The translations under genes and the position numbers were made by a program. From an uncultured Candidatus Peribacteria bacterium (GTDB lineage Bacteria > Patescibacteriota > Gracilibacteria > Peribacterales > Peribacteraceae), in contig CAZYQO010000004.1 in assembly GCA_964649695.1 (NCBI GenBank), forward strand, positions 89,394 to 153,393: DNA of 64,000 bases. The letters are read 5' to 3'. The notes under the pieces were generated by a model, which made no database searches, was not told where the DNA came from, and saw nothing but the letters and a program-made list of their open reading frames with translations. Position 1 is the stretch's first letter. Every line of letters starts with the position of its first letter. This document shows positions 2,226-60,070 of this stretch, piece by piece.

Positions 2226-3967
2226 GAAACATGGGAGGAAAGCAGCGTGCACAGCTCGTCATAGAAAAAAGGACGGCCGTCATACTTCAGAATCTTGTCG
2301 GTGATCGAGAGGCCGCACTCCTGACGGATCAACGTGCCCAGCTGCCCCTGATGGTTGCCTTCGACCAGCACCAGTTTTTTGCCGCTTTTCGCCAACTGTT
2401 CGATCGTGTCCGTCTTCAGCGGCCAAAGGTAGGAGTAATGCAGATAGGCCGCTTTGCCCGACAATTCCTTGGATGCCAGCGCATCCTCCATCACCGATTT
2501 GGTGCTCCCCCAACCCACGAACACGGTCTTGGCTTTCGAGGAACCGATCAGCACCGGCTCCGGCAACGATGCCTTGAGCGCATCCATTTTGCGCATGCGC
2601 TTGTCCATCTGTGCCTTCGCATTGTCCGCGCCCTCGTTGACCGCACCATCCGGGCTGTGCTCGTCGCCCTGCGCATTGTAGGTGGCCGCAACGGAACCCG
2701 GCAGCCATCGCGGGGAAACGCCATCGGGGTCGGTAGTACGGAAGCGATCCATGCTCGTCAGTGCCTTCAACTCCTTCGGATCGGTCACGATCCCCCGCTC
2801 CATCGTCGCCTTCTTCAGGTCATAGGGCTTCTGCGTGTAGATCGCCTCGGCGATCTGCTTGTCGGTCAATACGATCACGGAGATCTGGAATGTTTCCGCA
2901 ATGTTGAAGGCGATCGGCATGAGGGTAAATGCGTCGGCGCTGTCACTCACAGACAACACGCAACGCGGGAATTCCCCATGCGCGGTATGTATCGCCATCA
3001 ACAGATCACCCTGTGCCGTCCATGTGGGCAGACCCGTCGCGGGACCCGGGCGCTGGGCAAGCACGAACACCGTGGGATTTTCGATGATGCCGTTGAGCGA
3101 CAGCGTCTCACTCATGAGGTCGAACCCGCCGCCGCTTGTGGCGGTCAAGGCGCGACAGCCCATGTGCATGGCTCCGCTCACCATCTGTGCTGCGGTGATC
3201 TCGTCTTCGGCCTGCTTGATCACCATGCCGGTCTCGTTTTGGATCTCTGCGATGTACGACAGAAGCGGACTGCTCGGCGTCATCGGATACCCGGCATAGA
3301 GGCGCACGCCCGCATGCACCACGCCCAACCCCATCGCCTCGGTACCCGTAAGCAGCAGATCCTTGCTCCACGCCGCATCGGCCTTGGGCAACGTCACGGC
3401 AGCTTCTTTTGCACGCTCCTGTTTGAAAGCAAATCCGCGATCCACACACGTATAGTTGATTTCCAGAAGATCGGGCTTTTTGGCAAATTGTTCCTTGGCC
3501 AATCCCTTCAATTCATCCGCCTGACGCCCAAGCAACGCCCACACCGTCGCGGTAATGAGCATGTTCCCCAGAATCGGTTTGGCGTGAAGCTCATGCAGCA
3601 TCGCCTGCACGGGCAGCTCGATCACGGTGATCTTCTGCGCATCCAAAAACGCCTGATCGTCCTTGGAAAATTCCCAATCGGGCGACTGATGCAGCACCAC
3701 GCCGCCCGGTTTCAGTTCACGGAGATTCAACTCCAGACCGTGATGATTGAAACACACCAGCACATCGACGTGCTGCTCTGTGCTGCCGATCTTTTGGTCG
3801 CTGACATCGAGTTGGTAACTGCTGTGCCCACCCTTGATGAGCGACATGTACTCGCGATAGCCGAACACACAGTAGCCCGCCCGCTTGAGCCCCTTGGCCA
3901 ACAGTTCTCCGACGGAGTTCACCCCCTGTCCCTGCGAGCCGGTGACTTTGATGGACGCGCGACTCAT
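2222..3967 (-). CDS. 2-oxoacid:ferredoxin oxidoreductase, alpha subunit with fused gamma domain
   Basis: From MSRASIKVTGSQGQGVNSVGELLAKGL... (gamma-like N-terminus), followed by an alpha-subunit-like region. The upstream part of the ORF is a non-coding extension. Start overlaps the flavodoxin stop. Confidence 0.85.
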   Translation of the reverse strand: MSRASIKVTGSQGQGVNSVGELLAKGLKRAGYCVFGYREYMSLIKGGHSSYQLDVSDQKIGSTEQHVDVLVCFNHHGLELNLRELKPGGVVLHQSPDWEFSKDDQAFLDAQKITVIELPVQAMLHELHAKPILGNMLITATVWALLGRQADELKGLAKEQFAKKPDLLEINYTCVDRGFAFKQERAKEAAVTLPKADAAWSKDLLLTGTEAMGLGVVHAGVRLYAGYPMTPSSPLLSYIAEIQNETGMVIKQAEDEITAAQMVSGAMHMGCRALTATSGGGFDLMSETLSLNGIIENPTVFVLAQRPGPATGLPTWTAQGDLLMAIHTAHGEFPRCVLSVSDSADAFTLMPIAFNIAETFQISVIVLTDKQIAEAIYTQKPYDLKKATMERGIVTDPKELKALTSMDRFRTTDPDGVSPRWLPGSVAATYNAQGDEHSPDGAVNEGADNAKAQMDKRMRKMDALKASLPEPVLIGSSKAKTVFVGWGSTKSVMEDALASKELSGKAAYLHYSYLWPLKTDTIEQLAKSGKKLVLVEGNHQGQLGTLIRQECGLSITDKILKYDGRPFFYDELCTLLSSHVS

Positions 3968-4428
3968 GCGAGGAGAGGAAGGATCTCGTCGCCCCAGGCC
4001 TGCACCAGAGCCTCCTGGCCGTAGGGTTCGTTGACGACTTTGAGCATGTGGCCGAGCTGTTCGCCTCCATGATTCATCACAAACTGACGGAGATGATGGC
4101 CACTGTTGCACAGATAGCGATAACGTTCGTCGCCAAGGGCGATGATCAGCACCTTTTTGCCACCCAGCTGCACGGCGCCACACTGATCATGAAGAAAGCG
4201 ATGCATGTACGGGTTCATTTGGCCTTCAATGCCGCCGGTATTCCAGCTGCCACTGGCAAACAGCAACACATCCCCGCGCTGCAGATCCTCGGGCTTGGCC
4301 GCCTCCGCGCGCTGCACCTCCACGTTCAGGTGCGGGGCTTTTGCGGCGAGGTGATCAACGAGCGTCTGAACCACAAACTCGGTGTGACCGCTCGTGGAGG
4401 CGTAGATGATGTGCAGGGACTGAGCCAC
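3964..4428 (-). CDS. flavodoxin
   Basis: IIYASTSGHTE FMN phosphate-binding loop, about 154 aa. GTG start 4428 is preceded by TAGAAT with 6-nt spacing. Confidence 0.75.
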   Translation of the reverse strand: MAQSLHIIYASTSGHTEFVVQTLVDHLAAKAPHLNVEVQRAEAAKPEDLQRGDVLLFASGSWNTGGIEGQMNPYMHRFLHDQCGAVQLGGKKVLIIALGDERYRYLCNSGHHLRQFVMNHGGEQLGHMLKVVNEPYGQEALVQAWGDEILPLLA

Positions 4429-4495: not shown

Positions 4496-4501
4496 AAGGA
4501 G

Positions 4502-5893
4502 ATGGCTTTCACGAGCTTTACCTACCTGTATTTTCTCGCAATTGTCGTTGCGCTGTACTGGGCTGTGCGCAACAGGGTTGCCCAGAACGTCCTTTTGCTT
4601 GTAGCAAGTTACGTGTTCTACGGTTGGCTGACGCCATGGTATTGCCTCCTGCTGGCCAGCAGCACGATCGTCACCTATATCTGCCTGCATTGGCTGTGGA
4701 ATAGAAAGGAGGAAGAAAAAGAGCTCATCGCGGTTGTGGTGTGTGTGATTTTGAACATTGGAATGTTGGCCATCTGTAAATATTGGAATTTTTGGATCAC
4801 AGATATCCTAGCGACAACCAAATCTGTTGGCTGGAAATTATCAAAGGAAAGCCTGCAAATTGTTCTGCCGATCGGCATGTCATTTTATACATTGCAGGCT
4901 GTTGGCATCACTGTTGATGCTTATCGTAACGAAGTAAAAAGGCAATCTTTTTTGAATATTGCGCTGTTCCTAGCCTTCTTCCCCAAGTTAATTGCGGGCC
5001 CCTTCGAAAAAGCAAATGCATTCCTCGCTCAAGCCAACGCATCACGAACATTCGATGTAGGAAGTTTTTTGCAATCTTTTTCGTTGCTACTTGCAGGATT
5101 CTTGAAAAAATTAGTTATTGCAGAAAATATTAAAATTTATGTTGATCAAATCTTTTTTCTCAAAGATCCATCCATACCCTTGCTCTTGGTTGGCGGCGTG
5201 GGTTTTATGATTCAAATTTACGCTGATTTTTCTGGATATACAGACATAGCAAGAGGAAGTGCGCGCCTGTTGGGAATCAATCTAATGGAGAATTTTAATT
5301 CTCCATATCTAGCAGTCTCGCCATCTGATTTTTGGGGGCGCTGGCACATATCGCTCTCTCGCTGGTTTCGTGAATATATTTACATCCCCCTCGGGGGATC
5401 ACGTAGCCATGCAATCACTGAGATATGCTGGGCACTTATGATTACCATGTGTTTAAGCGGCCTCTGGCACGGCCCGACTTCAAATTATTTTGCTTGGGGT
5501 CTTTATCATGGAATGCTTATCTCCGCATATCTGACAATCGGCATCGGAGGTCACTGGAAACCAGTAACCGGCTTAGGCACCGCAATAGCAACAATATTAA
5601 TGTTAATTTGGACATTAATAGGCTGGATCATATTCCGCTGTAGCGATCTCGCTTGGCTTATTAAAATTATACTCAAATTTGATTGGCATCTCACGCAAGG
5701 TGAATTTTTAGTCACTTGGGTTTTTCTGTCTATGTATCTAGTGTACATACTGCCATGGCTGGGCTTAATAATCGCAGAACGCTTACCTGACAAATACATA
5801 TGGCTCAAGGCTCCGCTTAGGGCAACTATTGTGATGTGCATCGTTATTTTAGGAGAGGCAAACGTTGTTGATTTCATTTATGTTAATTTCTAA
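4502..5893 (+). CDS. MBOAT-family membrane-bound O-acyltransferase (AlgI/DltB/PatA-like)
   Basis: Polytopic, 463 aa, with a conserved MBOAT core (FWGRWHISLSRWFREYIYIPLGGSR ... SGLWHG). AT-rich codon usage unlike the flanking genes. Confidence 0.8.
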   Translation: MAFTSFTYLYFLAIVVALYWAVRNRVAQNVLLLVASYVFYGWLTPWYCLLLASSTIVTYICLHWLWNRKEEEKELIAVVVCVILNIGMLAICKYWNFWITDILATTKSVGWKLSKESLQIVLPIGMSFYTLQAVGITVDAYRNEVKRQSFLNIALFLAFFPKLIAGPFEKANAFLAQANASRTFDVGSFLQSFSLLLAGFLKKLVIAENIKIYVDQIFFLKDPSIPLLLVGGVGFMIQIYADFSGYTDIARGSARLLGINLMENFNSPYLAVSPSDFWGRWHISLSRWFREYIYIPLGGSRSHAITEICWALMITMCLSGLWHGPTSNYFAWGLYHGMLISAYLTIGIGGHWKPVTGLGTAIATILMLIWTLIGWIIFRCSDLAWLIKIILKFDWHLTQGEFLVTWVFLSMYLVYILPWLGLIIAERLPDKYIWLKAPLRATIVMCIVILGEANVVDFIYVNF

Positions 5894-7014
5894 TGGAAAC
5901 ACCAACATCACCACCGATCGAAAATCTCACAGCGAAGCAAGTGGAGCTGCCATCAAAAACTAATTTTCACCTTCCAACAGGCTCCGATACGCCTTCTGAA
6001 ACACCAGAAACGCAAAATGTGAATTCGTCACAATCTGGCACGGGATCCGCCCCTCTAAGGGTATCTGGGGGCATGGTAACTATTTTTGTATACTTAGCCT
6101 CGATCATTGTTGTAGGTCTTACAATCAACGCATTAGTTGTCCGGTTAAATGCACATTTCAATTTTATTGAGAAACAGCGTGAGATTTTAAATGACAAACC
6201 GCATGAAATTGTTATAGTTGGAAATTCTCAGTCAATTTTATTTTTAAATCCAACTATACTAAGCGCCGAATTACAAAGAAGTGTTGTTGAAATTCATGGA
6301 GGCGGCGTGCCTGCTGGCTGGTGGTATTTAGCAATAAAAAATATTGTGCTTCATTTAAACCCTAGACCAAATACAATTATTGTCCCTGTACTGCCGGAAT
6401 ATGTAGTAAATCCTAATGTGTTTCTCGTTAAATACGCGAAGGATCCTATCGCCGAAGAGCGCGAGCCTGAATTAGAAAAAATGGCGAAGATATCAAAGGT
6501 TACCAGTCCTCTTAGCGATTGGCTTTCGAGAACATTTTCTATGGTCAGAACAAATGACCAATTGCGACGTGTTTTGTATGAACAAATACGAGACTGGGAA
6601 ATCGCTTTGACAACAAAAAAAACAAAAACTGCCAACAAAACAATGAATGATACCTTGAAAGATGTGGCACCAAACCGTTTGCCCATCTCTTCGGTAGTGA
6701 AGTTGAAAAAGGAAGAACAAACCTTCGAAAACTCATTCATCCCCCTCATAGTCAATGTGGCAAAAAAGGGAGGAACTCAACTTATTTTTGTTCGTGTAAA
6801 GCAGCGTGATGGAAAAAAACAAGATGATATCCAAATAGCCTTCATGGACAAGATGCAATCTTTTCTGCAAGAGCAAGGCATCCCATATCTCGATTATTCA
6901 AATGATCCTAGAATTTCTGAAAAAGACTTTGTTGATGACAAACATCTATCAACAAACTCACAAAAAATATTTAATGCAATTCTCGCGCAAGATCTAGCAC
7001 CTTATTTGCGTTAA
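5893..7014 (+). CDS. membrane-anchored extracytoplasmic protein, probable MBOAT partner (DltD/SGNH-like, tentative)
   Basis: S/T/P-rich N-terminus, one TM helix (MVTIFVYLASIIVVGLTINALVV), then VIVGNSQS resembling a block-I Ser motif. Start overlaps the MBOAT stop. AT-rich. Confidence 0.4.
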   Translation: METPTSPPIENLTAKQVELPSKTNFHLPTGSDTPSETPETQNVNSSQSGTGSAPLRVSGGMVTIFVYLASIIVVGLTINALVVRLNAHFNFIEKQREILNDKPHEIVIVGNSQSILFLNPTILSAELQRSVVEIHGGGVPAGWWYLAIKNIVLHLNPRPNTIIVPVLPEYVVNPNVFLVKYAKDPIAEEREPELEKMAKISKVTSPLSDWLSRTFSMVRTNDQLRRVLYEQIRDWEIALTTKKTKTANKTMNDTLKDVAPNRLPISSVVKLKKEEQTFENSFIPLIVNVAKKGGTQLIFVRVKQRDGKKQDDIQIAFMDKMQSFLQEQGIPYLDYSNDPRISEKDFVDDKHLSTNSQKIFNAILAQDLAPYLR

Positions 7015-9077: not shown

Positions 9078-9102
9078 GCACGGCGGCAATGGCCGTTAGG
9101 CT
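9074..9102 (+). promoter_or_regulatory. sigma70-like promoter TTGAGC-17-TAGGCT for the NIF3-like gene
   Basis: -35 at 9074-9079, -10 at 9097-9102. About 20-nt leader containing UUUUUCCUC. Confidence 0.45.
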
Positions 9103-9128
9103 TGCAGGGTCTTTTTCCTCATTGACCC

Positions 9129-10091
9129 ATGAAGCTCAAAACCCTGTTCAAGCACGCCGTCGACATCGGCATCGAGGCCGACATCCGCGGCCGCAAGTAC
9201 TTAGAGAAGCAGCTGAAGAAGGAAGCCGACCGCCAGAAAAAGCTTGAGGGCAAGGAAAAGCAGTACGCCGATGAGGAGCGCACGTGGAACCCCTACGCCG
9301 ACTCCCGCATCATCAACGGCACCGGCGAGGAAGAGGTGAAGACGGTCTTCGTGGGCATCGATATCGAGACCCCGGAGGTGCTGTTGGCCGACCGTCTGCG
9401 CGAAAAAGGCCACAAGATCGACGCCCTGATGATCCACCACCCCGAAGGCCGCGCCTTGGCAGACCTGGATAAGGTGATGACCCTCAACTGTGATGTTGCG
9501 GCCGCCGCAGGCGTGCCGATCAACCAGTCGGAGTACCTCTATCGCCCCCGCATGGAGAAGATCTGGCGCGCCATCCACGCCGATAACCTCCTGCGCGTGC
9601 AGCAAGCCGCCGCGCACCTCGACTTCCCTGCGTTCTGCACCCACACCATCACCGACAACCTCGTCTGGGGTCTGATGGAGAAGATGATCTGCAAGAAGCA
9701 GTGGGACGATCTCGGCGAGATCATCAACGCCATCCGCGACATCCCCGAATACGACTTCTACGCCAAGAAGGGAAACCCGCCGATCATCGTGAACGGCAGC
9801 AGCAGCTCCCGCCCGGGCAAGATCGCCGCAACCGGCTTTACGGGCGGCACCAACGGCCCCGAAGAGATGTTTGAGCAGCAGGCTGCGGCAGGCGTAGGCA
9901 CCATCCTGTGCATGCACTTCACGGAGAAGGAAGTGGAAGTGGGTCGCAAGCACAACCTCAACCTCATCCAGTGCAGTCACATGGCCAGCGACGTGATCGG
10001 CATGAATATCCTCATCGACGGCCTGCAGAAACTGGAGAAGAAATTTGATGTGGTCGGCGCCTCGGGCTTCCACCGCGTGAAGCGCTCATGA
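9129..10091 (+). CDS. NIF3 (NGG1p-interacting factor 3)/DUF34-like metal-binding protein
   Basis: VGIDIE...IDALMIHHPEG, CTHTITDN and CSHMASD resemble the NIF3 His/Asp metal motifs. Confidence 0.55.
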   Translation: MKLKTLFKHAVDIGIEADIRGRKYLEKQLKKEADRQKKLEGKEKQYADEERTWNPYADSRIINGTGEEEVKTVFVGIDIETPEVLLADRLREKGHKIDALMIHHPEGRALADLDKVMTLNCDVAAAAGVPINQSEYLYRPRMEKIWRAIHADNLLRVQQAAAHLDFPAFCTHTITDNLVWGLMEKMICKKQWDDLGEIINAIRDIPEYDFYAKKGNPPIIVNGSSSSRPGKIAATGFTGGTNGPEEMFEQQAAAGVGTILCMHFTEKEVEVGRKHNLNLIQCSHMASDVIGMNILIDGLQKLEKKFDVVGASGFHRVKRS

Positions 10092-11023: not shown

Positions 11024-11368
11024 TTACAGACCGATCTTCTTGCAGATCGCGTCGAAGGTCTTGGGCTCGTGGATGGCGAGCTCGGACAGCACCTGACGAT
11101 CCATCGTCACGTTGTGCTCCTTCATCTTGGCGATCAGGATCGAGTACTTGCTGCCGCGGGCGCGGAGAGCGGCGTTGAGACGGACGATCCACAGACGACG
11201 GAACGTGCGCTTCTTCTTCTTGCGGTCACGGTAGGCGTGTTGACCCGCTTTGGTGATCGCCTCCTTGGCCTTGCGGATGGTCGTGCTTTTGACACCCTGA
11301 TAGCCCTTGGACAGGCGGCGCACCTTGCGGTGTCTGCGATGCCGATGGATACCACGTTTGACGCGCAT
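11024..11368 (-). CDS. rplT: 50S ribosomal protein L20
   Basis: MRVKRGIHRHRRHRKVRRLSKGYQG...RDRKKKKRTFRRLWIVRLNAA is a canonical bL20 sequence. Confidence 0.95.
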   Translation of the reverse strand: MRVKRGIHRHRRHRKVRRLSKGYQGVKSTTIRKAKEAITKAGQHAYRDRKKKKRTFRRLWIVRLNAALRARGSKYSILIAKMKEHNVTMDRQVLSELAIHEPKTFDAICKKIGL

Positions 11369-11378
11369 GGGAGGAGGA

Positions 11379-11573
11379 TTACAGGTTGGGGACGAGTTTC
11401 ATGAAGCGCTTTTCATCGGTCTTGTGCACCAGGATCGTGCGATTCTGGCGCTTGGCACGCTTGTTCTTCTGCTGGAGCAGGTGATTACGCGAGTTGCGCT
11501 TGAGAGCCAGCTTACCGCTGCCCGTGCGACGGACTCGTTTCTTCGCGCCGCTGTGACTCTTGAGTTTACCCAT
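11379..11573 (-). CDS. rpmI: 50S ribosomal protein L35
   Basis: MGKLKSHSGAKKRVRRTGSGKL...HLL is a canonical bL35 sequence. Confidence 0.95.
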   Translation of the reverse strand: MGKLKSHSGAKKRVRRTGSGKLALKRNSRNHLLQQKNKRAKRQNRTILVHKTDEKRFMKLVPNL

Positions 11574-13811: not shown

Positions 13812-13840
13812 TTGACTAAATATGTATTATTTTGTATAAA
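13812..13840 (+). promoter_or_regulatory. sigma70-like promoter TTGACT-17-TATAAA upstream of the small ORF and prfB
   Basis: -35 at 13812-13817, -10 at 13835-13840, within an AT-rich patch. Confidence 0.5.
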
Positions 13841-13876
13841 TACAAAGTCATCTTTTTACAGAAGAAGGAGAACGCG

Positions 13877-13975
13877 ATGACGATGCATCCGCCACCCCGA
13901 AAGCCTCGGGGCAAAGGCAAACGCCGCAAGACGAAACAGTCGTTGCGGCCGACCAAGATCGGAGCCCGCCGATGA
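13877..13975 (+). CDS. possible 32-aa highly basic small ORF upstream of prfB
   Basis: GAAGGAG lies 6 nt upstream of the ATG. Peptide is MTMHPPPRKPRGKGKRRKTKQSLRPTKIGARR. No family recognised. Confidence 0.25.
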   Translation: MTMHPPPRKPRGKGKRRKTKQSLRPTKIGARR

Positions 13976-14047
13976 CTCCGTCGCCCCGATCCCCTGCGTG
14001 CGGGAGGAGGGCTTTTTTGTGATACACTTGTCGCAGTCCTCCTCTCC

Positions 14048-15140
14048 ATGGAAGAACTTCTGCACCATCTTCGGGAACTCAGCAGCGCCATCCACGTGGG
14101 AAAGGACTCTCTTTGAAGCCAGGGATGTCCCGGCAAAAATCGCCGATCTCGAAACAAAGACCACCGCTGCCGATATTTGGAATGATCAAAAGCGCGCCAA
14201 TGAGCTGTTTGCCGAGCTGCGCGGACTGAAGAAGCAATGGGAGCCCGTGGCATCCCTCGCAGCAGATGTGGACGGGCTGATCGAGCTTGTCGGTCAGGCC
14301 GATGCCGCCGATCTGCCCGATCTGCAGAAGGAATATGACCGCGCGATGAAACAGTGGAGCACGCTGGAGACCATGCTCTATCTGGGCGGCGAGTTTGACC
14401 ACTGCAACGCCTATGTGACCATCAGCGGCGGCGCCGGGGGTACCGAGGCGCAGGACTGGGCGGGGTTTTTGGTGCGCATGTACCTGCGCTACTGCGAACG
14501 CCAGGGATGGAAAACCGACATCATCGACAAAACCGACGGGCAGGAAGCGGGTGTGAAATCGGCGACGATCTATGTGGAGGGCGACCCGGCCTACGGCTAC
14601 CTCAAGTGTGAAAAGGGCACGCACCGCCTTGTTCGTCTTTCGCCGTTCAATGCAAAAAACCTGCGCCAAACGAGCTTTTCCCTGGTCGAGGTGCTGCCCG
14701 AAATCAAGGACGCCGGGGAGATCCCCATCGAAGAGAAAGACCTGCGCATCGACACCTACCGCAGCGGCGGAGCGGGCGGCCAACACGTCAACAAGACCGA
14801 GAGCGCCATCCGCATCACCCATATGCCCACGAACATCGTGGTCAGCTGTCAGACCGAGCGCAGTCAGATCCAGAACCGCGAGCGCGCGATGGCGATGCTG
14901 CGTTCGAAGCTCGCGGAGAAGAAACGGCTCGAAGAACTTGAACAGAAGAAAGACCTTCGTGGTGCCACACAGTCTGCAGACTTCGGTCAACAGATCCGCA
15001 GCTACGTGCTGCACCCCTACCAGATGGTCAAAGACCTGCGCACCGACTACGAAACCTCGCAGACCCAGGATGTCCTCGACGGCGACATCCAGGCGTTCAT
15101 CGATGCAGAACTCAAGCGACAGGCCAAGGAAGGCACGTAG
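14048..15140 (+). CDS. prfB: peptide chain release factor 2, requires programmed +1 frameshift at 14111-14116
   Basis: 0-frame MEELLHHLRELSSAIHVGKDSL then TGA; the +1 frame continues EARDVPAKIADLE.... SPF (RLSPF) and GGQ (SGGAGGQHVN) motifs are present. Confidence 0.9.
14111..14116 (+). other. RF2 autoregulatory +1 frameshift site CTT TGA
   Basis: CTT (14111-13) is followed by in-frame TGA (14114-16). A purine-rich AAAGGA lies 6 nt upstream. Confidence 0.85.
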
Positions 15141-15850: not shown

Positions 15851-17749
15851 GTGAAACACCAAAACCGACTCCTCGACACTCTCCTGCCCATTGCCGTGCT
15901 TTTTGCATTCGCAGCGGGCTCCTGGTTGGTGCTGCATGCCGCACAACACGGATCTTTGCGGGCGTCGGTGGGCATCTGTGGCGATGGAACGGTGAACGAC
16001 GGCGAGGCCTGCGATGACGCCGATGTGGATGAGGCAGACGGCTGTACCACCAGCTGCACGATTTCCGCCGGCTGGACCTGCACGGGCAACCCCAGTGTGT
16101 GCAACCAGTGTGGCGACGGAACAAAGGTGTCCGCGGAGGCTTGTGATGACGGCAATGTGGCTGCGGCTGACGGTTGCAGCGCGACCTGCACCATTGAAAG
16201 CGGCTACAGCTGTACCGGCACAACGCCGAGTGTGTGTGATGCCTGCGGCAACGGCACCAAGGTGTCGGCCGAGGGATGCGACGACGGCAACAACACGGCG
16301 ACCGACGGCTGCAGCGCGACCTGCACGGTGGAGTCCGGTTGGACATGCACAGGCACCACGCCGAGCGTGTGCAACCACTGCGGCGACGGGACAAAAGTGG
16401 ATGCCGAAGCATGCGACGACGGCGACAACGATGCGGGAGACGGATGCAGCGCAACGTGTACGGTGGAAACTGGCTACGTGTGCAGCGGCTCGCCGAGCAG
16501 TTGCCACGCAACCGTGTGCGGAGACGGAGTGAAGGAAGGCAGCGAAGGCTGCGATGACGGCAATCACGCCAACGGCAGCCCTCTCGACGGCTGCAGTGCA
16601 AGCTGCACCATCCAATCCGGCGGCAGCTGCACCGGCACCACACCGAGCGTCTGCAGCATCTGCGGCAACGGAACGGTCGGCGGCACCGAGGCCTGCGATG
16701 ACGGGGATACCACGGCCGGCGATGGCTGCAGCGCGACCTGCACGGTGGAAGAGGGATACGTCTGCAGCGGCACGGCACCCAGTGCGTGCACCGTGTGCGG
16801 TGACGGCAGAAAAGTCGGCGCCGAGGAATGCGACGACAGCAACGCCACAAGCGGAGACGGCTGCAGCAGCATCTGCACGATCGAATCGAGCTGGAGCTGT
16901 ATCGGCAGCGGCAGCGGAGGACTGCTGAGTTCGTGCAACCGTTGCGGTGACGGCGTGAAGGTGGCTGCGGAAAACTGCGATGACGGCAACAGCGCCTACG
17001 GCGACGGCTGCAGTGCGACCTGCACGGTGGAAGAGGGATTTACCTGCACAGGCACCACACCCACGGTATGCGCAGGCATTTGCGGCGACGGCCTGGTGCG
17101 TGGCCAGGAAGGCTGTGACGACGGCAACACCACCGACGACGACAACGGCTGCTCCGCCACCTGCGTATCCGAAAAGGATTGGCTGTGTGTCGGCGAACCG
17201 AGCACCTGCACCCTGCAGCACTATCCCGGCGGCGGTGCCAATGCGGCGACGCGTGCAGCTTTCCCGTTGCCCGAACAAACCATGAAGAGCGCCGCACCCA
17301 AGAATCCCAACCAAGCTCTGGCTGCGCTCGCACAAACCAAAGTGCCGGTTCACATGATCACGACCGTTCTCGATTCCATCGCCCCTCCTGAAGGCTGCGT
17401 CACCGGCAAAAAGCATGCGGCTGCCCCCGTCCCCTTCCTCATCGAAGGCAACACGCGCGGCGTGATCTTCGCCGCCATGGCGGCCAAGCTGTGTCTCTCC
17501 ACGGCCGGCGGTGCACCCGTCCCCTACACCGACTTCGACGCGCACATGCCCTTTGGCTCCGAGATCCGCGCACTCTCCAACACCGGCGTGAAGATGGACG
17601 CCATGGATGCCCGCGGTTTTGCCACAGGCAAAATCTCTCCCGATCGGCCGATGAATGCCTTGGAACTCGTGCTCCTTATCGGCGGTCTGCAGAAGCGAGG
17701 ATACATTGAGTGGAAAGACGCCCAGCAGGCTATTGCACCCATGCAATAA
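15851..17749 (+). CDS. cell-surface protein with 9 cysteine-rich repeats (Myxococcus cysteine-rich repeat/DUF4215 type) and an SLH-like C-terminus
   Basis: N-terminal TM/signal (LLDTLLPIAVLFAFAAGSWLVL), then 9 copies of CG(D/N)G..x..E.CDDGN...DGCS.TC..E.G..C.G.PS.C. The C-terminal YTDFD...GFATGKISPDRPMNALE resembles an SLH motif. Confidence 0.8.
   Translation: MKHQNRLLDTLLPIAVLFAFAAGSWLVLHAAQHGSLRASVGICGDGTVNDGEACDDADVDEADGCTTSCTISAGWTCTGNPSVCNQCGDGTKVSAEACDDGNVAAADGCSATCTIESGYSCTGTTPSVCDACGNGTKVSAEGCDDGNNTATDGCSATCTVESGWTCTGTTPSVCNHCGDGTKVDAEACDDGDNDAGDGCSATCTVETGYVCSGSPSSCHATVCGDGVKEGSEGCDDGNHANGSPLDGCSASCTIQSGGSCTGTTPSVCSICGNGTVGGTEACDDGDTTAGDGCSATCTVEEGYVCSGTAPSACTVCGDGRKVGAEECDDSNATSGDGCSSICTIESSWSCIGSGSGGLLSSCNRCGDGVKVAAENCDDGNSAYGDGCSATCTVEEGFTCTGTTPTVCAGICGDGLVRGQEGCDDGNTTDDDNGCSATCVSEKDWLCVGEPSTCTLQHYPGGGANAATRAAFPLPEQTMKSAAPKNPNQALAALAQTKVPVHMITTVLDSIAPPEGCVTGKKHAAAPVPFLIEGNTRGVIFAAMAAKLCLSTAGGAPVPYTDFDAHMPFGSEIRALSNTGVKMDAMDARGFATGKISPDRPMNALELVLLIGGLQKRGYIEWKDAQQAIAPMQ
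15977..17209 (+). repeat. nine tandem coding repeats of 132-147 nt
   Basis: First Cys codons at 15977, 16109, 16244, 16379, 16517, 16661, 16796, 16943 and 17081. Recurrent gacggctgcagcgcgacctgcac strings. Confidence 0.85.
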
Positions 17750-17870: not shown

Positions 17871-17900
17871 TTGCGGATTGTCGATTCTCGCCCCTAGAAT
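17871..17900 (+). promoter_or_regulatory. promoter TTGCGG-18-TAGAAT for the histone-fold gene
   Basis: -35 at 17871-17876, -10 at 17895-17900. About 24-nt leader containing UUCCUUCCUCC. Confidence 0.5.
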
Positions 17901-17930
17901 GCCACCACTCTATTTCCTTCCTCCAGTTCT

Positions 17931-30267: not shown

Positions 30268-31418
30268 GTGTGAGGGAGGATACGCTCCATGCGCTCCGTC
30301 CACAGGAAGTGTTGGACGTGCATTGCGGCTCGCTTGGCAACATGGTCGGCATGGGTCGGATGCGAGAGCACTCCTGCGGTCGCAAGCGCGAGACTGTGGG
30401 CATCGCCCGGCTTGAAGAAGTCCGCTGTGTCACCCGACAGGAGATCATGCACGGGCGGGAGATCGGCGCAAATGATGGGCTTGCCTACCGCCATGTACTC
30501 CAACAGTTTGAGCGGCGACGTATCGCGTTGAAAATACGGATGCATGGAAGCGGGTGCGGGGTAGACGAGAATATCCGATGCGGCATAGACCGCAGGTACC
30601 GTGGCATGAGGAACCGCCCCCAGGAAGACCAGGGCGTCGCTCACGCCTCTCTCTTCCGCAAGACGATGCAACGCCTCCACCGATGACTGTGGGCCACCGG
30701 CAATGAGCGCCTTGATATGGGGGTAGTCGGCACGGAGCAGCGCCACGGCCTCCACGATCACTTCCACACCCTTCGAAAGCCCCATGGTATGGAGCGAGCC
30801 GGCATAGCCGAGCACCTGATCCGTTTCCGAGATACCCCACTGCCTGCGGGCGGCACCGCCATCGGGAAGCGCGGCGAAAGGAGCAAGATCCACACCGTCA
30901 GGCTCCACGCACAACACTTCCTCCGGGACACCCCATCGCAACAACTCATTTCTCATGGGTGTCGTGAGACAGACAACCTTCTTGCAGCGCCGAAGCAGCG
31001 CGGCAAATCCCCCGCGTCCGAACCTGGGCAAGGTATGCAGTTCCATCACTGTGGGAATACCCGAACGCAGCAGCGCTGACAGCAACGCCGGCGTGCGGGT
31101 GTACAGAACATCAAACCTGTCTGCAGTGAGTTCTCGACGCAGCAGGCGGATGAAGCTCCATGTATGCAACTTGAGCCCGATGACGCCGGGGGTGAACGGC
31201 GAGGCGATCCCGTCGAAGGCAGGAAGCTTGTGCATGCCGATCTCACGCCGGGCGCGGTGGTATTCCCAGAAATCCTCACGAATCGGATTGTCGCGATCAG
31301 GACAGAGGATGGTGACCTGGTGCCCGTTTGCCACCAATGCATCACAGACCCTGGCCACCTGATGGCCATAGGCGCGTTCACTGGGGAGCCGGAGGGCTGC
31401 GATATAGCCGATCCTCAT
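30264..31418 (-). CDS. GT4 glycosyltransferase (GT-B fold)
   Basis: From MRIGYIAALRLPSERAYGHQV.... C-terminal SPLKLLEYMAVGKPII EX7E-type motif. Confidence 0.75.
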   Translation of the reverse strand: MRIGYIAALRLPSERAYGHQVARVCDALVANGHQVTILCPDRDNPIREDFWEYHRARREIGMHKLPAFDGIASPFTPGVIGLKLHTWSFIRLLRRELTADRFDVLYTRTPALLSALLRSGIPTVMELHTLPRFGRGGFAALLRRCKKVVCLTTPMRNELLRWGVPEEVLCVEPDGVDLAPFAALPDGGAARRQWGISETDQVLGYAGSLHTMGLSKGVEVIVEAVALLRADYPHIKALIAGGPQSSVEALHRLAEERGVSDALVFLGAVPHATVPAVYAASDILVYPAPASMHPYFQRDTSPLKLLEYMAVGKPIICADLPPVHDLLSGDTADFFKPGDAHSLALATAGVLSHPTHADHVAKRAAMHVQHFLWTERMERILPHT

Positions 31419-31497
31419 GGGAGGAGTGTAAAGAAAGCCCCCCAAAAGAACGAGGGGGACTGGGCGGGAAACCGCCCCCCTGCTAGGCTGCAGCCCA

Positions 31498-37605: not shown

Positions 37606-38565
37606 CTACGCCTCCCGATCCTCCGCGTCTGCCTGGTTGCGGTACCACTGGATGGTGCGGGCAACGCCCTCCGTAAAGCTGACTTTTGGCTCCCAGCCGA
37701 GCTTTTTGGTATTGCCGCTGTCGAGTGCATAACGCCAGTCGTGCCCCGGGCGGTCGGGCACAAACTGAATTAGGCTGTCGGGTTTCTGGAGGATGGCCAG
37801 CACCGTTTTCACCACTTCGATGTTCCGACGTTCATCGTCGGCACCGATGCAGTAGACCTTTCCGTCCTCCCCTTTTTCGAGCACCAGCTCGATCGCATCG
37901 GTGTGATCGGTGACATACAGCCAGTCGCGCTTGTTCTCTCCTTTGCCGTACAACGGAATCTTCTGGTCATGCAGCGCACGGGTGATGACCACGGGCAGAA
38001 GCTTGCTGCGGTCTTGGTGCGGACCGAAGTTGTTGGTGCAGCGGGTGATGCGCACCCTGATGCCGAAGGTGCGATGGGCGGCCAACAGCAACAGATCCCC
38101 CGCGGCCTTGCTCGCGGCATAGGGCGAACTGGGGCGCAGCGGAGACTCCGCGGTGCTCGACGCCTCACCATCTTTCAGGTCGCCGTACACCTCGTCAGTC
38201 GAGACGTGCAACAGTTGCAGGGCGGGGTGACGCTTGCAGAGCTCGATGAGGCTGTGGATGCCGAGAATATTGGTGTGGATGAACGGCACCGCATTCTGGA
38301 TGCTGCGATCGACATGGCTCTCGGCGGCAAAGTTGATGACCGCATCGATCTTGTATCGCTCCACGAGATCCAGCAGCAGCGCAAAGTCCACGATGTCCCC
38401 CTCCACAAACGTGATTTGCTCTTTGACGGAATCCAAAAAAGACCGATCCGCCGCATAGGTCAGCTTGTCGAGCACCACCACTTCATCGCCCGGATGCGAC
38501 GCCACATGTCGCAGCACATAGTGCGACCCGATGAAGCCCGCGCCGCCAGTAACCAGGAGATTCAT
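37606..38565 (-). CDS. rfbB: dTDP-glucose 4,6-dehydratase
   Basis: MNLLVTGGAGFIGSHYV...DKLTYA...INFAAESHVDRS...YAASKAAGD. Confidence 0.85.
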   Translation of the reverse strand: MNLLVTGGAGFIGSHYVLRHVASHPGDEVVVLDKLTYAADRSFLDSVKEQITFVEGDIVDFALLLDLVERYKIDAVINFAAESHVDRSIQNAVPFIHTNILGIHSLIELCKRHPALQLLHVSTDEVYGDLKDGEASSTAESPLRPSSPYAASKAAGDLLLLAAHRTFGIRVRITRCTNNFGPHQDRSKLLPVVITRALHDQKIPLYGKGENKRDWLYVTDHTDAIELVLEKGEDGKVYCIGADDERRNIEVVKTVLAILQKPDSLIQFVPDRPGHDWRYALDSGNTKKLGWEPKVSFTEGVARTIQWYRNQADAEDREA

Positions 38566-38629
38566 GGCCGCAGTATAGCAGCTGGGGAGGCCTTCCCGAG
38601 CCCTATTTCAGGCTCTAAGCTAGAACCCT

Positions 38630-51450: not shown

Positions 51451-51479
51451 TTGACCAAGGCCTTTTTCTTCCTTAGGCT
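51451..51479 (+). promoter_or_regulatory. promoter TTGACC-17-TAGGCT, 10 nt upstream of the rpmB ATG
   Basis: -35 at 51451-51456, -10 at 51474-51479. Confidence 0.55.
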
Positions 51480-52561: not shown

Positions 52562-52588
52562 AGGGAGGGGAGGAAAGGAACGCAGACG

Positions 52589-52617
52589 ATCGTAGCGGAA
52601 CCCGAAAATCCCTGCAA
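52589..52617 (-). promoter_or_regulatory. promoter TTGCAG-17-TACGAT for the small Cys-cluster gene
   Basis: Plus-strand coordinates: -10 at 52589-52594, -35 at 52612-52617. Confidence 0.5.
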
Positions 52618-55653: not shown

Positions 55654-55684
55654 TCCCCGGCTGTAACGACATTCCCCTCTTTTT

Positions 55685-55928: not shown

Positions 55929-56225
55929 GTGCTCCGCTTCCTCCATTCCCTCTCGGCCTGGTTGTTCTACCCGCTGGCAGGCAGCTTCTTTGTCGCCTAT
56001 CTGCTGCTGCGACATCAGCTGTGGGGCGAGTTCCCGCTTTGGTGGCTGAGCATCATGGATCTGCCGCTGCTCCTTGCGGGCGTGCTTTACGGCGTAAGCA
56101 GCGTCACCATCAGCGTGACTGACCCGGACAACCCGTCAAAGGGATTGCTCTGGGGCACGTTTCTCCCCGCCGTCATTTTGCTTCTGGCCGTGTTGCTGTT
56201 GAACTTCGGCCTTCTCCCCGCCTGA
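55929..56225 (+). CDS. hypothetical 3-TM membrane protein (start set at GTG 55929)
   Basis: TATCCT lies 6 nt upstream of the GTG. Hydrophobic segments begin right after it. Confidence 0.4.
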   Translation: MLRFLHSLSAWLFYPLAGSFFVAYLLLRHQLWGEFPLWWLSIMDLPLLLAGVLYGVSSVTISVTDPDNPSKGLLWGTFLPAVILLLAVLLLNFGLLPA

Positions 56226-60018: not shown

Positions 60019-60047
60019 TTGTCAGGCAGGCTTGGCTTCCCTACCAT
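60019..60047 (+). promoter_or_regulatory. promoter TTGTCA-17-TACCAT for ndk
   Basis: -35 at 60019-60024, -10 at 60042-60047. Confidence 0.5.
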
Positions 60048-60070
60048 GCCGCCACTTTCCTCATATCCCC

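Follow-up and report, generated by a model that had tools for sequence, protein, structure and literature searches.

Upstream of its start codons, where a Shine–Dalgarno (SD) sequence is expected, a 64,000-nucleotide stretch of DNA from an uncultured Candidatus Peribacteria bacterium (contig CAZYQO010000004.1, positions 89,394 to 153,393; hereafter the window) carries tracts of C and U that have the sense of the anti-SD sequence, as the original prediction, made from the letters of the window, had claimed. At the spacer between rpmI and rplT, the plus strand at 11369 to 11378 reads gggaggagga, and a strand misreading of GGAGG was suspected first. Both rplT (11024 to 11368) and rpmI (11379 to 11573) lie on the minus strand, however, and the mRNA reads UAA-UCCUCCUCCC-AUG, so the entire 10-nt spacer is pyrimidine, as predicted, and the transcript truly carries UCCUCC. 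The feature is mainly a tract of pyrimidines at a preferred position, U preceding C, and in a GC-rich genome it takes on the appearance "UCCUCC". The Peribacteria lineage does not use SD pairing, and the reading that we favor, with moderate confidence, is that the tract is a G-poor, unstructured landing pad for SD-independent initiation, probably read by ribosomal protein S1.

Comparison of coding sequences places the window (59.6% GC) in a related member of the class Candidatus Peribacteria (Peregrinibacteria, Candidate Phyla Radiation [CPR]). Among species-representative genomes, the nearest loci encoding RF2 come from four Candidatus Peribacteria/Peribacteraceae metagenome-assembled genomes (MAGs; loci L001-L004, 50–62% GC) with 66–71% RF2 identity, all others having at most 52%. 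Gene order around rplT and prfB agrees with that published for Ca. Peribacter riflensis, a genome of 58.5% GC (PMC4736985), although details differ. Genes were called with a self-trained codon model, and starts were picked by coding score, blind to the upstream sequence. The window set comprised 57 genes, in which positions -20 to -1 were compared with coding sequence. A pattern search for the Peribacteria-type 16S rRNA 3′ end yielded 64 metagenome loci (L082-L145), and a larger set of 307 genes from 36 Peribacteria sequences, which includes the window and L001-L004, was assembled with 16S genes masked and near-duplicates removed and was divided into three GC bins.

The 57 window genes have a pyrimidine (Y) frequency of 0.64 at positions -20 to -1, compared with 0.50 in the coding sense, and a G frequency of 0.19 compared with 0.30. 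A C/U 5-mer was present in 42% of their upstream regions versus 10% (Fisher P = 3e-10), positions -40 to -21 were near background composition, and the antisense strand was without signal. SD-like 4-mers, counted so as to include GGAA and GAAG, which match the variant 16S tail discussed below, occurred in 7% of window genes versus 23% in the coding sense, and in 2–5% of the relatives' genes; background rates are 20–28%, or 20–27% when sense and antisense coding controls are taken. The GGAGG-like purine motif 5 to 10 nt 5′ of the start that marks canonical SD genes is therefore not the arrangement found in the window or in its relatives, and the predicted scarcity of SD-like purine motifs is confirmed. 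The four relatives repeat the window pattern. A wider enrichment test had been suggested with the prediction; on the 307 genes, enrichment holds and no SD signal emerges. Upstream G is 0.15–0.19 versus 0.23–0.31 in coding sequence in each of the three GC bins, and in each bin T and C are raised and A is unchanged relative to coding sequence. The trait may reach beyond Peribacteria to Gracilibacteria-type relatives of Peregrinibacteria: in a Candidatus Altimarinota MAG (L051), upstream Y is 0.62 and SD-like words are nearly absent.

A start-calling artefact was considered and ruled out. Run through the same pipeline, loci from control phyla (Chloroflexi, Actinomycetota, and Lentisphaerae) gave upstream Y of 0.43–0.50 and SD-like words in 26–35% of genes; because the signal is missing there, the gene caller is not its source. 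The signal is kept for starts that involve no choice, namely the first ATG of an open reading frame (ORF) with an in-frame stop at most 30 nt upstream (n = 105; P for G, 1e-25), and upstream Y is 0.70–0.80 at six independently verified starts. Pfam identified L20, L35, RF2, NDK, L34, L28, IF3, both OFOR subunits, wecB, GT4 enzymes, M16, and PheT, and profile alignments place the L20, L35, NDK, L28, and L34 starts within 1 to 2 residues. The prfB start at 14048 is confirmed independently by a +1 frameshift of the classical RF2 type, the short frame ending CUU-UGA (14111 to 14116) and translation continuing in the +1 frame.

Pairing with rRNA of the ordinary kind does not explain the tract. The Peribacteria 16S tail, taken from related loci rather than from the 16S gene of the window organism, is GAACACUUCCUUA / ACACUUCCUUA, with the core CUUCC and not CCUCC. 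It is found in the 64 loci, which span 37–58% GC and include one contig of 1,248,112 bp, on which the Rfam small subunit (SSU) rRNA model ends at ...CUUCCUUA. Published surveys agree: the tail GAACACTTCCTTA is tabulated for three Peribacteria genomes (PMC10783764, drawing on Amin et al. 2018, PMC6107228), and Estrada et al. 2024 assign Ca. P. riflensis, with SD sequences in 7% of genes, to an SD-scarce class lacking a conserved CCUCC (PMC10783764). The predicted duplex energy with the tail ACACUUCCUUA at positions -21 to -6 is -0.5 kcal/mol versus -1.6 kcal/mol in the background, that is, weaker, which rules out pairing of the tract with the lineage's tail and upholds the earlier claim that ordinary SD pairing cannot account for it. 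An unusual 16S 3′ tail had been offered as one explanation; the unusual tail exists, in the form of the CUUCC core, but it does not explain the tract, since the tail is itself pyrimidine-rich and the pairing falls below background. The tract resembles the canonical SD sequence in its place relative to the start, with a peak near -13, and in its similar length, and it differs in being of the opposite base class, not complementary to the lineage tail, and degenerate.

One SD-like element is retained inside prfB. The window and L001-L004 (near position 9997) share an identical frameshift cassette core, AAGGACUCUCUUUGA, despite the low RF2 identity given above, and the AAGGA of the cassette complements UCCUU of the variant 16S tail. 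This AAGGA cannot serve as proof of an active tail, because the equivalent Flavobacterium element is reported to be unimportant under standard conditions (PMC13000453). As to the 16S genes themselves, in 16 Peribacteria-type loci (including L106, L132, L088, L093, L138, L110, L144, L107, L143, and L115) no tRNA or 23S rRNA gene follows the 16S gene within the available sequence, and in these loci the 16S gene appears to be unlinked to the 23S gene.

Among genes without the leaderless signature described below, Y is at its maximum at -17 to -10, with T at -16/-14 followed by C at -12/-10, and a Y-run of at least 7 nt occurs in 36% of these genes, compared with 10% of coding controls and 7% on the antisense strand (P = 2e-27). 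In the window, Y-runs of at least 9 nt that end at most 20 nt from a start number 11 versus 1.7 expected (P = 1e-6), or 13 when the histone-like and rpmH starts are included, which fall under the gene-score cut-off and hence outside the called genes. A fixed UCCUCC word is ruled out: the rate of C/U 5-mers is recreated by within-20-mer shuffles (0.36 vs. 0.42, P = 0.14 in the window; P = 0.8 in the relatives), and an expectation-maximization (EM) search yielded only a degenerate motif with C or T at almost all positions. The log-likelihood of that motif, 39.5 versus 16–23 for shuffles, shows that the pyrimidines are clustered into a tract. The "UCCUCC-like motif" of the original prediction is thus sound as a pyrimidine tract and not as a defined word. 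Among pyrimidine 6-mers, TCCTCC has 16 occurrences where 5.6 are expected, a modest excess of the kind also seen for TTTCCT and TTCCCC, and CCCCCC is avoided; the 3′ ends of the tracts are scattered from 0 to -23.

The excess of particular words raises the question of sequence-specific docking, in which the tract would pair with purine-rich rRNA, for example GGGAA following the 16S tail (...CUUCCUUACCAGGGAA) if that extension were retained, or, being similar to the canonical CCUCC tail, would fill the platform pocket that holds the 16S tail in other bacteria. Directly 3′ of ...CUUCCUUA, the sequence ACCAGGGAA is invariant in 62 of the 64 loci although it lay outside the searched pattern (e.g., L094, 4140 to 4158, minus strand). 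The most over-represented Y 5-mers include UUUCC and UUCCC, which are complementary to GGGAA with or without wobble, and the hypothetical partners GGGGAA and GGGGGA rank at the top of the 64 purine hexamers (z 4.6–5.3). The TCCTCC excess, the peak at the SD place, and the lack of A enrichment point the same way. Nevertheless, we consider docking quite unlikely. Word frequencies are recreated by the shuffles and the EM motif is degenerate, AGGGAA ranks only 18th of the 64 purine hexamers, and the duplex energy with CCAGGGAAU (-3.4 to -3.9 vs. -2.8 background) represents a slight gain with no sharp dip. The Rfam model ends before the extension, and the scatter of tract 3′ ends does not suit a docking site. 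Moreover, CCAGGG is the 5′ arm of a hairpin in the trailer; the opposite arm varies yet keeps its pairing, which resembles a precursor-processing element. Another possible partner of GGGAA is UUCCU of the tail. The sequence ACCAGGGAA may serve in such processing, or it may possibly be kept as a 3′ extension and mask the tail. A related idea is recognition of reversed polarity, with a UUUCCUCC-like mRNA mimicking the ancestral anti-SD sequence and the ribosome giving the purine partner, for which GGGAA in a retained 3′ extension of the 16S rRNA is one candidate (in free ribosomes it would pair with UUCCU of the tail), or with the platform pocket that holds CCUCC in other bacteria reading the tract; to this we likewise attach a low probability.

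Genes whose upstream region is itself coding give evidence that the tract acts in mRNA. In 35 coupled pairs, the last 20 nt of the upstream coding sequence (CDS) have Y of 0.66 and G of 0.16, whereas 272 uncoupled CDS ends have Y of 0.42 and G of 0.28 (P = 1e-13). Codons for Leu, Pro, Thr, and Ser are enriched at the ends of coupled upstream genes, Leu and Pro approximately two-fold in the last six codons. Stop and start overlap as AUGA in 21 of the 35 pairs and in 14 of the 22 window genes classed as internal; overlap or spacing of a few nucleotides is the usual mark of translational coupling, an arrangement with which the tract is associated, and rplT itself has its 10-nt gap. It had been cautioned that Leu, Pro, and Ser codons of upstream genes might contribute to the tracts, but the relation is the reverse: such endings arise only where a coupled gene follows. 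Codon choice is thus driven by the tract, and upstream proteins have their C-termini bent to supply it. This imposition on the upstream CDS argues for a role at the level of mRNA. At noncoding leaders, what is conserved is the property rather than the letters. The prfB leaders of five Peribacteria are C/U-rich 3′ of their own -10 box with differing sequences, the four relatives having CCCCCUUUCCC-AUG or GUG at the same place after their own -10 box, and the region upstream of rplT is C/U-rich in three of the four relatives.

A part of the genes has a different arrangement. A TANNNT hexamer lies exactly at -12 from the start in 45 of 307 genes (15%) and at -15 to -12 in 109 of 307 (35%), where about 2 to 4 are expected per position; in a first set, 22 of 107 genes had it at exactly -12. 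In the -12 class, TG stands at -15/-14 (the hexamer often following TGn or GC), 98% of genes have Y at -1, and +1 is occupied by A or G; the same geometry recurs in L001-L004 and in L082-L145. By this arrangement, 22 window genes are leaderless-like, 22 are internal (mostly AUGA overlaps), and 13 are leadered. The leadered genes have a -10-like box at approximately -24 to -37 and predicted leaders of 12 to 25 nt that are nearly all C/U, as with prfB, ndk, rpmI, the 9129 and 59472 genes, and the genes for the small Cys protein and the histone-like protein. For prfB, the position of the extended -10 box implies a leader of approximately 12 to 13 nt. Judged by promoter geometry, leaderless mRNAs would be widespread, accounting for about a third of genes, with the rplT spacer outside this class. 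The original prediction missed this class, for which a cited tract is promoter DNA and probably untranscribed. The tract cited before the GT4 gene at 31418 is an example: it is present, but it falls in the interval from the -10 box to the ATG and is probably discriminator DNA. The rpmB gene has a TAGGCT hexamer at -16 (51474 to 51479) and was sorted into the leaderless-like class, and its tract may lie wholly or partly upstream of the transcription start.

These genes are also the ground for supposing that the feature acts in DNA, the C/U-rich nontemplate strand being part of the promoter (discriminator or start-site region) or another transcription signal. In the leaderless class, including GT4 (31418) and the ORF starting at 55929, the tract does lie between the -10 box and the start, and Y at -1 with A or G at +1 is the usual Y-1/R+1 preference, where R is a purine. 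As a general account this is very unlikely, because the tract is strongest in AUGA-coupled genes, mostly without a detected promoter signature, and is present in the 10-nt rpmI-rplT spacer, and because in leadered genes it comes after the predicted -10 box and so belongs to the transcript. A promoter role is valid for the leaderless class only. That class resembles leaderless initiation in Actinomycetota, Deinococcus, Caulobacter, and archaea in having a -10 box that ends 6 nt before the start, with Y-1 and A/G+1. It covers only part of the Peribacteria genes, however, and the tracts of leaders and coupled genes are left unexplained by it.

Predicted structure is reduced around the starts. The minimum free energy (MFE) of positions -25 to +25 is -6.9 kcal/mol versus -10.2 kcal/mol for controls (P = 2e-16), and the unpaired probability is 0.50 versus 0.43. 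When the upstream 25 nt are replaced base by base with their complement, so that Y becomes R at equal GC, the MFE falls to -9.3 (P = 4e-9). The purine complement would thus restore structure, from which it follows that a G-poor pyrimidine stretch is efficient at keeping a GC-rich initiation region open. An unstructured pyrimidine-rich tract 5′ of the start, as expected of an S1-dependent enhancer, is what the Y peak and the MFE values describe. S1 has been described as binding pyrimidine-rich regions upstream of SD sequences (PMC3296737), and the published gene table of Ca. P. riflensis, a related species, lists a 486-aa rpsA (K02945, E = 3.5e-116), a gene that lies outside the window. We infer that, of the three explanations offered at the outset (S1-type recognition, an unusual 16S tail, and structure formation with upstream GGAGG elements), recognition of unstructured pyrimidine leaders by S1 fits best.

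The same measurements could arise passively, if the region were purged of words rich in G or in purines, which, by folding or by annealing to the residual tail UUCCUU, would stall or misplace ribosomes, and the pyrimidines were only the remainder. Across GC bins, no signal is stronger or more uniform than the depletion of G, tail complementarity is below background at -21 to -6, and AAGGA, the complement of UCCUU, is strictly conserved in the prfB cassette, so that such words exist where they are possibly useful. We nonetheless regard a by-product as unlikely: A is not enriched while C and U both rise, pyrimidines cluster beyond what within-30-mer shuffles produce (EM 39.5 vs. 16–23), the tract has a positional peak and a U-then-C order, and upstream protein sequence is bent to supply it.

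Under the favored reading of a landing pad, Peribacteria would mark starts in two ways. In the first, a -10 box (TAnnnT, often TGn-extended) at -15 to -12 would set transcription to begin at, or 1 to 3 nt from, the A of the AUG. In the second, genes with short leaders of approximately 12 to 25 nt, or genes coupled to an upstream gene (mostly through AUGA), would rely on a G-poor polypyrimidine tract of approximately 7 to 19 nt, centered near -13, with U prevailing in its 5′ part and C in its 3′ part, which in a genome of 60% GC would appear as UUUCCUCC or UCCUCC. The tract would keep the initiation region single-stranded and without purine-rich words, and would present pyrimidines to which the 30S or 70S ribosome could bind, most likely by means of bS1. 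The ribosome would then load on the short leader, or re-initiate after upstream termination, without SD pairing. The role of the tract would be that of a permissive or enhancing context and not of a unique address.

Several points weigh against the landing-pad reading. Structure avoidance alone predicts that A should rise and C should fall, whereas A is unchanged and C rises; pyrimidines as such are therefore apparently selected, which fits an RNA-binding surface that prefers them. The excess of TCCTCC, TTTCCT, and TTCCCC, together with the U-then-C polarity, hints at a sequence preference beyond an unstructured pad. The window contains 169 Y-runs of at least 9 nt, 156 of them away from starts, so the tract is no unique address. 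Most CPR S1 proteins have only 3 to 4 domains (PMC9297842). Genes and starts were called with a simple home-made caller, and it is from sequence that we infer the transcription starts, the leader lengths, the involvement of S1, and any effect on translation.

Structure formation between the tract and an upstream GGAGG element, whereby a hairpin would bring a distant SD-like site near the start or regulate access to it, is rejected as extremely improbable. The sole example is prfB, where GGGAGGAGGG (13995 to 14004) lies 33 nt 5′ of the tract and is complementary to it. This element is upstream of the prfB -10 box (14023 to 14028) and so outside the transcript, and it makes up the 3′ half of a hairpin that resembles a terminator, has a T run, and follows a small ORF. 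No such purine element occurs 5′ of prfB in any of the four relatives, and SD-like words are not enriched at -40 to -21 (0.19 vs. 0.23). The small ORF lies in a plus-strand stretch (13817 to 14019) that also holds a promoter-like TTGACT-17-TATAAA, AAGGAG 6 nt 5′ of ATG 13877, and a GC hairpin with a T run. It encodes a very basic 33-aa product (13877 to 13978), and its SD-like context is among the few that the window contains. It was rejected as a conserved SD-led gene, since no homologue was found in the four relatives.

Related systems are known, and part of what is described here is already in the literature: the lack of SD sequences and the variant tail in Peribacteria and, as kinds of mechanism, S1–pyrimidine binding, leaderless initiation, and the SD-blind Bacteroidia. 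S1-dependent, SD-independent initiation on unstructured leaders rich in pyrimidines or U has examples in E. coli S1 targets 5′ of SD sequences, in cyanobacterial rbcL, and in the G-free omega leader of tobacco mosaic virus, which acts in bacteria; it offers a likeness in that a sister species of the window organism has an S1 gene. In those cases, the S1 site is accessory and found on single mRNAs of SD users, whereas the Peribacteria tract is lineage-wide, at the SD place, rich in both C and U, and imposed on the upstream CDS. SD-blind initiation in Bacteroidia (Flavobacterium johnsoniae) is like that of Peribacteria in that a whole lineage is without SD sequences and the prfB cassette keeps an SD-like element. 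In Bacteroidia, CCUCC is retained but held sequestered by bS21, bS18, and bS6, and a preference for A-rich, Kozak-like contexts is reported. Peribacteria, unlike them, have the core CUUCC, and their upstream A equals coding A in all GC bins. A further likeness is low secondary structure, an important mRNA determinant in the Bacteroidia-type system (PMC13000453), and a further difference is that bS21 is often missing in the Peregrinibacteria clade (PMC9297842).

The closest published case is the SD-scarce class of Ca. P. riflensis, which is of the same lineage, with the same tail GAACACTTCCTTA and the same conclusion that SD sequences are not used (PMC10783764, PMC6107228). In one of the two reports, Amin et al. 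2018, the upstream motif ranked first is TACACT for Ca. P. riflensis (z 20.5) and TTCTTC for a second Peribacteria genome (PMC6107228). Neither report interprets TACACT or TTCTTC, and neither, in its searchable text, contains the -10/leaderless signature, the positioned tract, or its imposition on CDS ends (PMC10783764, PMC6107228). In the searchable literature, we found no account of a C/U motif in Peribacteria or CPR, nor, for this lineage, of a positioned C/U tract at the SD place, of its imposition on the ends of upstream genes, or of the -12 promoter geometry.

The individual sites are listed in Table 1. Each tract cited in the original prediction before other named genes was found in the mRNA sense. 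The labels "NIF3-like" (the 9129 gene) and "histone-fold" do have Pfam similarity behind them, but at sub-threshold level (E ~0.002–0.003), the AUG 17931 product matching CBFD_NFYB_HMF with E = 0.0027, under the curated cut-off. The ndk start is fixed by the Pfam NDK alignment (residues 2–135 to profile positions 1–134), and the AUG 52561 product is an 87-aa Cys-rich membrane protein.

Table 1. Upstream tracts, promoter-like starts, and the prfB frameshift cassette in the window (tracts given in the mRNA sense)
Feature	Position	Strand	Details
rpmI-rplT spacer	11369..11378	-	UCCUCCUCCC; rplT start fixed by Pfam L20 alignment (residues 2-108 to profile positions 1-107)
prfB leader tract	14037..14047	+	UCCUCCUCUCC, adjoins AUG 14048; extended -10 box TGaTACACT 14020-14028 before the tract
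prfB +1 programmed frameshift cassette	14099..14116	+	GGAAAGGACUCU-CUU-UGA (AAGGACUCU-CUU-UGA); fixes the prfB start frame
Leader tract of small protein with weak histone-fold similarity	17913..17924	+	UUUCCUUCCUCC, 6 nt 5′ of AUG 17931; -10 box TAGAAT 17895-17900
Leader tract of 9129 gene	9110..9120	+	UCUUUUUCCUC, 8 nt 5′ of AUG 9129; -10 box TAGGCT 9097-9102
ndk leader tract	60056..60062	+	UUUCCUC, inside a 20-nt stretch with 80% pyrimidine; -10 box TACCAT 60042-60047
rpmH leader tract	55672..55684	+	UUCCCCUCUUUUU, adjoins GUG 55685; Pfam L34 residues 8-40 to profile positions 10-42
Small Cys protein tract, 19 nt	52562..52580	-	UUCCUUUCCUCCCCUCCCU, adjoins AUG 52561; -10 box TACGAT 52589-52594
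rpmB (L28) upstream tract	51461..51474	+	CCUUUUUCUUCCUU, ends 15 nt 5′ of AUG 51490; start fixed by Pfam L28 (residues 3-61 to profile positions 1-59)
OFOR alpha tract	3970..3983	-	UCCUUCCUCUCCUC, within final flavodoxin codons; AUG 3967 overlaps the upstream stop as AUGA
OFOR beta tract	2233..2242	-	CUUUCCUCCC, within the OFOR alpha end, 7 nt 5′ of AUG 2225 (AUGA overlap)
wecB tract	30272..30280	-	UCCUCCCUC, within the GT4 gene end, 4 nt 5′ of AUG 30267 (AUGA overlap); Pfam Epimerase_2
M16 peptidase tract	56210..56219	+	CCUUCUCCCC, 7 nt 5′ of AUG 56227; upstream gene stops 1 nt before the AUG
GT4 gene, start 31418	31419..31430	-	-10 box TACACT at -12 to -7, then CCUCCC; leaderless configuration
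Leaderless example	38572..38577	-	TGcTATACT, hexamer exactly at -12 to -7 from AUG 38565
Further -12 starts	46891(-), 52663(+), 19903(+), 15851(+), 49420(+), 4428(-), 4502(+)		Arrangement as at 38565

Two other regions of the window deserve description. An island of low GC content at 4500 to 7000 (38–46% vs. ~59% GC), probably horizontally acquired, encodes an MBOAT O-acyltransferase (4502 to 5893) and a DUF1574-like gene (5893 to 7014); the MBOAT gene carries GCTATAAT at -12, as in native leaderless genes. The plus-strand gene at 15851 to 17749 encodes a large secreted or membrane protein with approximately 12 Cys-rich repeats (CGDG..E.CDDGN....DGCS..C), and a long spurious ORF lies on the opposite strand.

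How start codons are found without SD pairing is still an open question across much of the bacterial tree, and the CPR, almost all of whose members are uncultured, is among the least studied parts of it. In Peribacteria, loss of the canonical anti-SD sequence is accompanied by two conserved signatures, the promoter geometry of putatively leaderless genes and a G-poor tract that shapes the C-termini of upstream proteins. These provide rules for calling starts in Peribacteria and possibly in Gracilibacteria-type genomes, where gene finders trained on SD sequences likely misplace them. They also offer a simple test case for whether pyrimidine tracts, read by S1 or by another component of the ribosome, can stand in generally for the SD sequence. 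If the reversed-polarity reading were true, a bacterial lineage would have swapped SD pairing for another specific contact between mRNA and ribosome.

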